From Escherichia coli (lineage in GTDB: Bacteria; Pseudomonadota; Gammaproteobacteria; Enterobacterales; Enterobacteriaceae): a DNA stretch of 64,000 bases. A program made the position numbers. Below, piece after piece: positions 18,901 through 21,900 of the stretch. The stretch lies in the NCBI RefSeq assembly GCF_024502345.1, contig NZ_JALDNN010000001.1. One strand, 5' to 3'. Numbering within the stretch: position 1 is the stretch's first letter; each line of letters begins with the position of its first letter.

Positions 18901-21900
18901 ATTCTCTTTTATTGACCGTATCAGAATCTATAGCTTGCATCCATGCCTTAACAAACATCTTTCAATTCAATCAAATAGAGATTGGCTAAGCATGTCTATC
19001 TTTTCTGATTACAGTTCCAGTAGTGAAATGCACAATAATTTAACAATTGATTATTATTTAGCACTTTCCTCTACCAAAGGCAGTGGAATTACTAATATCA
19101 TTTCAATTATTCTTCAGCAAGCCCAGGATTATGATGTGGCGAAAATAACATGATGGTGAGGAGAAGCAGTTAAGTAAATCCTTATAACTAACTGTAATTT
19201 GAGAAGAATATTTTTACCTATTCCTTTTGCTTTTGATAACTGCGCGGGAACAAAGTAAAAATAATGACGAAGTAAACGGAGCATGGCAGCTCCGTTTCAT
19301 TTGAAAGGAATTAATTAAGCAGGCCGGGGAAAATCCCCTTAATACCAGTAACGATAAATTCAATCCCCAATGCCATCAGCAATAGCCCCATAATACGCGT
19401 AATCACGTTGATGCCGGTCTGGCGTAAAACCCGTACCAGCCACGGTGCCATGCGGAACAATCCCCAACAACATAAAGCGAACAATGCAATAGCCACAAAG
19501 AAACCAAACAGATAGCTAATGCTGTGATAACGCGTACCCCAGACGATGGTAGAACTGATCGCCCCTGGCCCCGCCATCAACGGCAACGCCAGTGGCACCA
19601 CACCAATGCTTTCACGTACCGCGGTTTCTGATTTTTCTTGCTTGTTCTGTTTATCCTCTCCAAGCTTGCCGCTGATCATCGACATCGCTATCGTCACCAC
19701 CAGGATGCCCCCGGCGATACGGAACGAATCAATTGATATACCAAAAAGTTGTAGAATCGTGTCGCCGAGAAAAAGCGAGATCCACAAGATAATGGCCACA
19801 GACAGGTTGGCTGTAAGGTTAGTTTTGTTTCGCGCTGCCGCTGTCTGATAACTGGTCATGCTGATAAAGACGGGAATAATCCCTACCGGGTTGACCAGCG
19901 CAAATAACCCGATGAAAAATTTGAAGTAAACGGGAAAATCAAAAAGGGTCTGAATCACGGTTAGCTCCGAAGCAAAAGCCGGATAATGTTAGCCATAAAT
20001 AAGGTTGAAAAGACGCGCTGACAATACGCCTTTTGACAGCATTTTTCACCTCCTAACTACTTAAAATTGCTATCATTCGTTATTGTTATCTAGTTGTGCA
20101 AAACATGCTAATGTAGCCACCAAATCATACTACAATTTATTAACTGTTAGCTATAATGGCGAAAAGCGATGCTGAAAGGTGTCAGCTTTGCAAAAATTTG
20201 ATTTGGATCACGTAATCAGTACCCAGAAGTGAGTAATCTTGCTTACGCCACCTGGAAGTGACGCATTAGAGATAATAACTCTAATGTTTAAACTCTTTTA
20301 GTAAATCACAGTGAGTGTGAGCGCGAGTAAGCTTTTGATTTTCATCGGTTAAGCAAATCATCACCGCACTGACTATACTCTCGTATTCGAGCAGATGATT
20401 TACTAAAAAAGTTTAACATTATCAGGAGAGCATTATGGCTGTTACTAATGTCGCTGAACTTAACGCACTCGTAGAGCGTGTAAAAAAAGCCCAGCGTGAA
20501 TATGCCAGTTTCACTCAAGAGCAAGTAGACAAAATCTTCCGCGCCGCCGCTCTGGCTGCTGCAGATGCTCGAATCCCACTCGCGAAAATGGCCGTTGCCG
20601 AATCCGGCATGGGTATCGTCGAAGATAAAGTGATCAAAAACCACTTTGCTTCTGAATATATCTACAACGCCTATAAAGATGAAAAAACCTGTGGTGTTCT
20701 GTCTGAAGACGACACTTTTGGTACCATCACTATCGCTGAACCAATCGGTATTATTTGCGGTATCGTTCCGACCACTAACCCGACTTCAACTGCTATCTTC
20801 AAATCGCTGATCAGTCTGAAGACCCGTAACGCCATTATCTTCTCCCCGCACCCGCGTGCAAAAGATGCCACCAACAAAGCGGCTGATATCGTTCTGCAGG
20901 CTGCTATCGCTGCCGGTGCTCCGAAAGATCTGATCGGCTGGATCGATCAACCTTCTGTTGAACTGTCTAACGCACTGATGCACCACCCAGACATCAACCT
21001 GATCCTCGCGACTGGTGGTCCGGGTATGGTTAAAGCCGCATACAGCTCCGGTAAACCAGCTATCGGCGTAGGCGCGGGTAACACTCCGGTTGTTATCGAT
21101 GAAACTGCTGATATCAAACGTGCAGTTGCATCTGTACTGATGTCCAAAACCTTCGACAACGGCGTAATCTGTGCTTCTGAACAGTCTGTTGTTGTTGTTG
21201 ACTCTGTTTATGACGCAGTACGTGAACGTTTCGCAACCCACGGCGGCTATCTGTTGCAGGGTAAAGAGCTGAAAGCTGTTCAGGACGTTATCCTGAAAAA
21301 CGGTGCGCTGAACGCGGCTATCGTTGGTCAGCCAGCCTATAAAATTGCTGAACTGGCAGGCTTCTCTGTACCAGAAAACACCAAGATTCTGATCGGTGAA
21401 GTGACCGTTGTTGATGAAAGCGAACCGTTCGCACATGAAAAACTGTCCCCGACTCTGGCAATGTACCGCGCTAAAGATTTCGAAGACGCGGTAGAAAAAG
21501 CAGAGAAACTGGTTGCTATGGGTGGTATCGGTCATACCTCTTGCCTGTACACTGACCAGGATAACCAACCGGCTCGCGTTTCTTACTTCGGTCAGAAAAT
21601 GAAAACGGCTCGTATCCTGATTAACACCCCGGCTTCTCAGGGTGGTATCGGTGACCTGTATAACTTCAAACTCGCACCTTCCCTGACTCTGGGTTGTGGT
21701 TCCTGGGGTGGTAACTCCATCTCTGAAAACGTTGGTCCGAAACACCTGATCAACAAGAAAACCGTTGCTAAGCGAGCTGAAAACATGTTGTGGCACAAAC
21801 TTCCGAAATCTATCTACTTCCGCCGTGGCTCCCTGCCAATCGCGCTGGATGAAGTGATTACTGATGGCCACAAACGTGCGCTCATCGTGACTGACCGCTT

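Follow-up and report, generated by a model that had tools for sequence, protein, structure and literature searches.

A 53-codon open frame opposite the oppA P1 promoter of Escherichia coli is most likely a chance ORF

Results

A probable chance frame antisense to oppA P1

A 53-aa open reading frame (ORF) in the spacer between ychE and oppA of Escherichia coli is, with a probability that we put at about 90%, a chance open frame antisense to the known oppA P1 promoter and early leader that encodes no functional protein. The frame overlaps P1, P2 and the oppA leader, and a coding signature is absent. We infer that it makes no protein. The analysis was conducted on a 64,000-nt stretch of contig NZ_JALDNN010000001.1 (assembly GCF_024502345.1), referred to here as the window, and all coordinates are positions in it.

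In the reading that we propose, the role of the DNA beneath the ORF is to promote and control the expression of oppABCDF. In its 3' third, the ORF is the reverse complement of the P1 sigma-70 promoter and a conserved block upstream of it, and the rest of the 53-aa ORF is complementary to leader nt 1-93, counted from P1, of the 511 nt in all. A longer, 98-aa form of the frame likewise mirrors the first 228 leader nt, up to the P2 promoter block. In E. coli sensu stricto the frame is stop-free, most likely by accident, so that gene callers assign it a "hypothetical protein".

Position of the frame and length expected by chance

The ORF runs on the + strand from an ATG at 18992 to a TGA at 19151-19153 (18992-19153) and is antisense to oppA P1 positions -69 to +93. 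These coordinates, and all 53 residues of the translation, agree exactly with those of an earlier note made on this DNA. Both neighbors lie on the opposite strand, oppA from 18573 to 16942 (-) and ychE from 19958 to 19311 (-), while adhE starts at 20435 (+); compared with K-12, the window shows the genes in reverse-complement orientation. The spacer that contains the ORF measures 737 bp (18574-19310), in line with the "roughly 740 bp" estimated earlier. Upstream of 18992 the same frame continues without a stop codon to a TTG at 18839 (104 codons), and an ATG at 18857 gives the 98-aa form (18857-19153, +; antisense to P1 -69 to +228).

The length expected by chance was estimated from 5000 dinucleotide-preserving shuffles of the spacer, in each of which the longest complete ATG ORF was scored. 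The spacer is AT-rich, and the ORF frame has 33% GC. The longest ATG ORF in the shuffles had a mean length of 53.4 +/- 17.4 aa. With an ATG ORF of 53 aa or longer in 45.5% of the shuffles (P=0.455), the 53-aa ORF is at chance level. A stop-free frame of 98-104 codons is somewhat long for sequence of 33% GC, and ATG ORFs reach 98 aa in only 2.4% of the shuffles. This figure is unremarkable because there are hundreds of long spacers per genome.

The oppA promoters and leader beneath the frame

The two promoters of oppABCDF, P1 and P2, and the 511-nt 5' leader were described by Igarashi et al. 1997 (as cited in PMC9988348). Two start sites, P1 (+1) and P2 (+246), have since been confirmed, with P1 the stronger, and the leader is cut by RNase E at +341 and pairs with MicF from +372 to +393, as mapped by Carrier, Lalaouna & Masse (2023, PMC9988348). 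This published numbering was anchored to the window in four ways, by the MicF site and by primers EM5064, EM4528 and EM4516 (all from Table S3, PMC9988348), and all four agree. A 22-nt MicF-complementary sequence, AATAAATAAAGTCGGTGATAGT, lies at 18713-18692 (-), and no other part of the leader forms a better duplex with MicF (-24.8 kcal/mol). This position of the MicF site places P1 +1 at 19084. The genomic 5' end of primer EM5064, "Rv P1_oppAprom", is exactly 19084. Primer EM4528, used for a T7 template from the +341 cleavage site, begins with ATCGAC at 18744, which is +341, and the P1-specific primer-extension oligo EM4516 matches 19030-19049 (+36 to +55). The P1/P2 region and leader are therefore the very element beneath the ORF, as the published primers match the window at those positions; the ORF differs from the known element in being read from the other strand.

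The P1 core promoter and start occupy 19084-19120 (-), with the published, primer-anchored start at A 19084. As read from the sequence, the -35 hexamer is TTGCTG (19120-19115), followed after a 17-nt spacer by an extended -10 element, TGATATTAG (TG-A-TATTAG, 19100-19092). P1 has the layout of a sigma-70 promoter, in which the two hexamers are 17 +/- 1 nt apart and the -10 ends about 7 nt before an experimentally mapped start. The -10 hexamer is TATTAG in the window versus TATTAT in K-12. Upstream of the -35 lies a conserved block at 19124-19153 (-; P1 -41 to -69) with the pattern ...TGTTATTTT..TCACATCATA.TC..., which carries the ORF stop codon and last nine codons. This block is probably an UP-like or regulator-binding element.

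Downstream of the start, the early P1 leader at 19034-19073 (-; +12 to +51) is conserved, with the pattern AGAGGAA.GTGCTAAATAATAA.CAATTGTTAAATT, and contains the target of an IS5 insertion in MG1655. It is followed by the hypervariable center of the P1 leader (18914-19033, -; +52 to +171), which contains the start codon of the ORF (ATG, 18992) as well as the central part of the 98-aa frame. The P2 promoter block (18839-18913, -) lies beneath the first 19 codons of the 98-aa form. Its start (+246) is A 18839, its -10 hexamer, read in the same way, is TACTTT (18852-18847) preceded by TG at 18855-18854, and its -35 is TTGGCG (18876-18871, -), 18 nt from TG-G-TACTTT. An upstream element within this block, AAAAGAGAA...TAACAA.TTTGCAAA, is invariant. 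The full leader from P1 covers 511 nt (18574-19084, -), and the oppA ATG at 18573 is +512. The RNase E site falls at 18744 (-; +341), and the MicF pairing site (18713-18692, -; +372 to +393) lies about 280 nt outside the ORF. The earlier note had described the region as otherwise holding the long oppA leader. The leader is indeed there, but that description was incomplete, as the ORF also lies over the P1 core promoter and the block upstream of it.

The spacer has been flagged as H-NS-associated and binds RpoD holoenzyme in genomic SELEX (PMC3946193), and the oppA promoter region is strongly enriched in ChIP of Lrp (bioRxiv 10.1101/276808). In a ChIP paper on PhoB, the region is named just as being up-regulated, with no site mapped in the spacer.

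Conservation follows the promoters

Spacers were fetched with YchE, and not the ORF, as the anchor to avoid bias. This yielded 80 species-representative loci, 75 of which include the oppA start; the spacer is 664-878 bp long in all of the loci. Identity across the 75 species was calculated in 10-nt bins. It is 0.69-0.96 over the P1 core promoter (19084-19123), with 0.96 in the -10 bin, 0.62-0.75 over the block upstream of the -35 (19124-19153), and 0.71-0.93 over the P1 leader from +12 to +51 (19034-19073). The P2 block (18839-18913) has an identity of 0.60-0.92, mostly 0.85 or higher, and the MicF site (18694-18713) 0.77-0.98. The ORF center (18914-19033) has an identity of 0.23-0.61, mostly 0.23-0.46, and the ORF start codon sits in the least conserved part of the spacer (0.23-0.33). 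Among six Escherichia, 2 of 40 sites in the P1 core are variable versus 82 of 120 in the ORF center.

In a 30-taxon alignment (genera or species), the -35 and -10 of P1 are invariant, with CTTG...-35 and ATGATATTAGT unchanged. The sequence between the hexamers varies while its length is constant, the columns of the +12 to +51 leader block are nearly invariant, and the P1 region shows no three-base periodicity. Conservation tracks promoter architecture, not codons. The only conserved "peptide" segments, such as ITNIISII, are translated promoter elements. In other genera, tblastn matches to residues 1-25 and 84-104 resemble homology but are likewise promoter blocks read as protein.

The frame is broken in the other Escherichia species sampled

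The six Escherichia species representatives have YchE and OppA proteins that are 96-99% identical, and the ORF frame is broken in all five that are not E. coli (L003, L005, L006, L007 and L029). In L003, the nearest, with 94% nucleotide identity, there is a stop in the N-terminal extension, and the ATG at 18992 is ATA. L005, L006 and L029 have in-frame stops, and their C-terminus is out of frame owing to an insertion of 1 nt near 19121. The same insertion is present in L007 together with a further frameshift in the N-terminal half, and the ATG ORF that remains in L007 is just 50 aa long, with a different start and end.

Variable sites among these genomes were counted at codon positions 1, 2 and 3. 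The counts are 16:19:19 for the 53-aa form (p=0.85) and 34:43:38 for the 98-aa form (p=0.59), versus 17:2:105 for ychE (p=3e-33) and 19:6:252 for oppA (p=7e-91) in the same genomes. This pattern argues that there is no purifying selection on the ORF frame.

No common frame over the P1 region was found among the 75 Enterobacteriaceae species. The longest stop-free stretches there have differing frames and ends, and their median length is 52 codons. Many species have no ATG in this stretch, and ATG ORFs of 53 aa or more are present in just 12 of the 75. The earlier note had allowed that the ORF might be noise and had named lack of conservation in relatives as evidence against a gene. The broken frames in the five other Escherichia and the lack of a common frame across the 75 species, together with a length at chance level, support the noise reading.

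Variation within E. coli

Ten E. coli sequences with 98-100% identity were compared. The 98-aa frame has 14 variable sites among them, of which six are synonymous, seven nonsynonymous and one nonsense. The nonsense allele, TCA>TAA at 18963, is present in four of the ten sequences, O157:H7 included. Synonymous changes (6/14) are nominally more frequent than the neutral expectation of 26%, which is not significant (p=0.135). No variable sites were found within the P1 block among the ten sequences. The 53-aa version is intact in all ten, which would be expected anyway because nucleotide identity within E. coli is 98-99%.

Expression signals, protein families and fold

GC content is flat across the codon positions of the ORF (0.33/0.35/0.33). 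Pairing with the anti-Shine-Dalgarno sequence before the two ATGs is weak (-2.9 and -3.5 kcal/mol) compared to that of oppA (-8.0 kcal/mol). A scan for consensus promoters and terminators found no + strand promoter-like site upstream of either ATG. Promoter-like matches are not in excess, with four versus 3.0 +/- 1.6 in shuffles. One of them is on the + strand inside the ORF (TGCACA-17-TATTAT, 19029-19057).

Neither the 53-aa nor the 98-aa form matched a Pfam or NCBIfam family at E<=10. A search of 5.8 billion protein sequences returned homologues only from Escherichia/Shigella, one record labelled Enterobacter hormaechei, and metagenome contigs. These are near-identical or truncated, and their called lengths are heterogeneous, from 53 to 143 aa. 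A mobile-element origin was also considered and rejected, as tblastn against phages gave no match. A single-sequence AlphaFold2 run on the 98-aa form produced no confident fold (mean pLDDT 43.3, pTM 0.28), which is weak evidence. Rfam returned no family on either strand; the MIR399 match (20.3 bits versus a gathering score of 57, E=0.24) is at chance level.

The searchable full-text literature has no mention of the protein accessions of the two forms (below) or of their peptide strings. The locus is not mentioned in the intergenic Ribo-seq small-gene study of EHEC Sakai and its supplements, nor in the initiation-profiling preprint of Weaver et al.; studies based on MG1655 are uninformative here if the strain carried the IS5.

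Annotation in RefSeq and in K-12

The 98-aa form is the RefSeq "hypothetical protein" WP_001211521.1, which PGAP calls in many genomes of E. coli; in others it calls the 53-aa form, WP_000021850.1. The calls are inconsistent, with both forms unannotated in some genomes that have identical frames. Among the full-length matches listed for complete genomes, PGAP calls the frame in 27 of 39, about two thirds, and the frame was found on at least 1000 contigs.

The earlier note suggested that the ORF could correspond to an annotated short ORF of K-12. This did not hold, as the MG1655 record NC_000913.3 has no ORF between ychE (b1242) and oppA (b1243), where it lists only IS5U and its transposase, insH21. 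Alignment of the junctions to the window places this IS5 at a CTAA target, 19058-19061, inside the ORF. CTAA is the IS5 target duplication and corresponds to +24 to +27 of the P1 leader. Since the IS5 sits inside the frame, MG1655 is without an intact copy of the ORF. The window is without the IS5 of the MG1655 reference, and some stocks of K-12 are known to lack this insertion (PMC10044804). In another strain, an IS3-family element interrupts the frame.

A K-12 small ORF, ychT (b4771; 17 aa, MLSKGVLSARLFNLIYG), lies upstream of ychE at 19989-20042 (-). It is probably the short ORF that the earlier note had in mind. Both are small ORFs of one neighborhood, and YchT was recently added to the K-12 annotation. 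Unlike the ORF, YchT lies on the other side of ychE, and the two have unrelated sequences and do not overlap.

Discussion

Three other readings of the ORF were weighed against a chance frame. One is that it is a de novo gene or proto-gene that arose recently and only in E. coli, and that is translated from a + strand RNA crossing the leader and P1 in antisense orientation. We consider this very unlikely. The 98-aa frame is longer than 97.6% of the shuffles, yet this long form commonly carries a nonsense allele. The 53-aa frame is intact in all ten sampled E. coli, but the frame is already broken in the closest of the sister species, whose nucleotide identity is 94%. The synonymous excess is slight and non-significant, and third-position bias is absent. 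PGAP calls the frame in most of the full-length matches listed, and it recurs on at least 1000 contigs; the Shine-Dalgarno pairing, however, is weak, no + strand promoter-like site precedes the frame, there is no codon-position GC signal, no confident fold was obtained, and the searchable literature holds no expression report. A more elaborate version, in which expression of the proto-gene and activity of oppA P1 are mutually exclusive and promoter conservation supplied a ready-made conserved C-terminus, would be a still longer shot.

The + strand might instead give rise to a non-coding antisense RNA that modulates oppA by transcriptional interference or RNA duplex formation, with the ORF being incidental. 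Spurious or divergent transcription is frequent in AT-rich, H-NS-flagged spacers. This spacer is flagged in that way and binds RpoD holoenzyme in genomic SELEX (PMC3946193), and the promoter-like match inside the ORF is on the required strand. Such matches do not rise above the level in shuffles, though, no Rfam family was found, and the mapped sense-strand promoters fully account for the conserved blocks, which leaves this reading with a very slim chance. The reading of the ORF as an already annotated K-12 small protein gene is refuted: apart from the nearby ychT, nothing was found for it, and it conflicts with a feature table that has only IS5U/insH21 between ychE and oppA, with the splitting of the ORF by IS5 at 19058-19061, and with the position (19989-20042) and unrelated sequence of ychT itself.

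A chance frame, our preferred reading, places the ORF among the "hypothetical protein" calls, spurious or orphan, that are made in intergenic DNA rich in AT. Like these, it is restricted to E. coli/Shigella, belongs to no family, has no confident fold, is missing a coding signature, and is annotated inconsistently in identical sequence. No difference from this class was found, and the ORF is a typical member. The biological weight of the ORF is small, and the practical value of the finding is in annotation hygiene. WP_001211521.1 and WP_000021850.1, called in thousands of E. coli/Shigella assemblies, are most likely spurious, and they should not be counted as orphan or de novo genes without expression data.

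The sense strand of this region is related to another known RNA. In Salmonella, the 5' UTR of oppA gives rise to OppX, an sRNA that acts as a sponge for MicF (Matera et al. 2022, cited from PMC9988348). If its long form, OppX-L (410 nt), begins at the P1 5' end, it would span the sense-strand homologue of the ORF region. No stable fragment of the oppA leader was detected in E. coli (PMC9988348). Unlike the ORF, OppX is a sense-strand RNA whose defining feature is a MicF site outside the ORF, and it has no bearing on the + strand frame. The MicF site is conserved, with an identity of 0.98 across 75 species. The published oppA landmarks, P1, P2, the RNase E site and the MicF site, are now placed on the window, and the promoter blocks are conserved across Enterobacteriaceae.

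Sequence features of the ychE-oppA spacer

Comparison of the spacer across about 75 Enterobacteriaceae species showed that three blocks outside the core -35/-10 hexamers are conserved, all on the - strand. One lies at 19124-19153 of the window, corresponding to positions -41 to -69 relative to the transcription start of the oppA promoter P1. Another spans 19034-19073 (P1 +12 to +51), and the third, at 18880-18913, takes up about 35 nt upstream of the -35 hexamer of the other oppA promoter, P2. These blocks are plausible candidates for Lrp or H-NS sites, or for UP elements. The middle of the P1 leader, at 18914-19033 (+52 to +171), is hypervariable, with 68% of sites differing among the six Escherichia species representatives; the corresponding figure for the spacer's ychE-distal part is lower, at 49%. 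Despite this hypervariability, the total length of the spacer is kept throughout the family. At position 19175, in the poorly conserved, ychE-distal part, the window has a T, whereas all nine E. coli genomes compared have a G; this T is a private SNP.

The core of P1 itself differs between strains. Sequence comparison placed the difference at the last base of the -10 hexamer, window position 19092 (C on the + strand and G of TATTAG on the - strand). TATTAG is found in the window, in nine further E. coli sequences and in five other Escherichia species, while K-12 MG1655 and primer EM5064 (PMC9988348) have TATTAT. The K-12 allele looks derived. TATTAT is also nearer to the consensus than TATTAG, and P1 might be stronger with it.

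The oppA leader has been hit repeatedly by insertion sequences: IS5 is present in the MG1655 reference, and further cases were seen in two of the E. coli spacer loci (L091 and L092). The MG1655 IS5 is at 19058-19061 (P1 +24 to +27) and parts P1 from oppA. IS1A was found within the leader in strain TUM24563, and ISSen4, an IS3-family element, near 18921 in strain NCTC122. Some K-12 stocks do not have the IS5 in the oppA leader (PMC10044804). Its presence or absence among K-12 stocks bears on how K-12 oppA expression data are read.

Directly past the ychE stop codon, at 19274-19297, is a hairpin (AAACGGAGC-ATGGCA-GCTCCGTTT) whose stem is kept among Escherichia while the loop varies. It is probably the ychE terminator, but its T-run is short, and for that reason a simple scan for terminators missed it.

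Annotation of small ORFs

PGAP calls of the spacer ORF were inconsistent among nine E. coli spacer loci. The 98-aa frame (18857-19153, + strand), identical in sequence, is annotated in L001 and L089 and unannotated in L083 and L084. The 53-aa form (18992-19153) is annotated in L088 and unannotated in L085, L086 and L090. Upstream of ychE, the K-12 small protein gene ychT (17 aa, MLSKGVLSARLFNLIYG) is intact at 19989-20042 on the - strand; some PGAP records wrongly give its gene name as 'ychE'.
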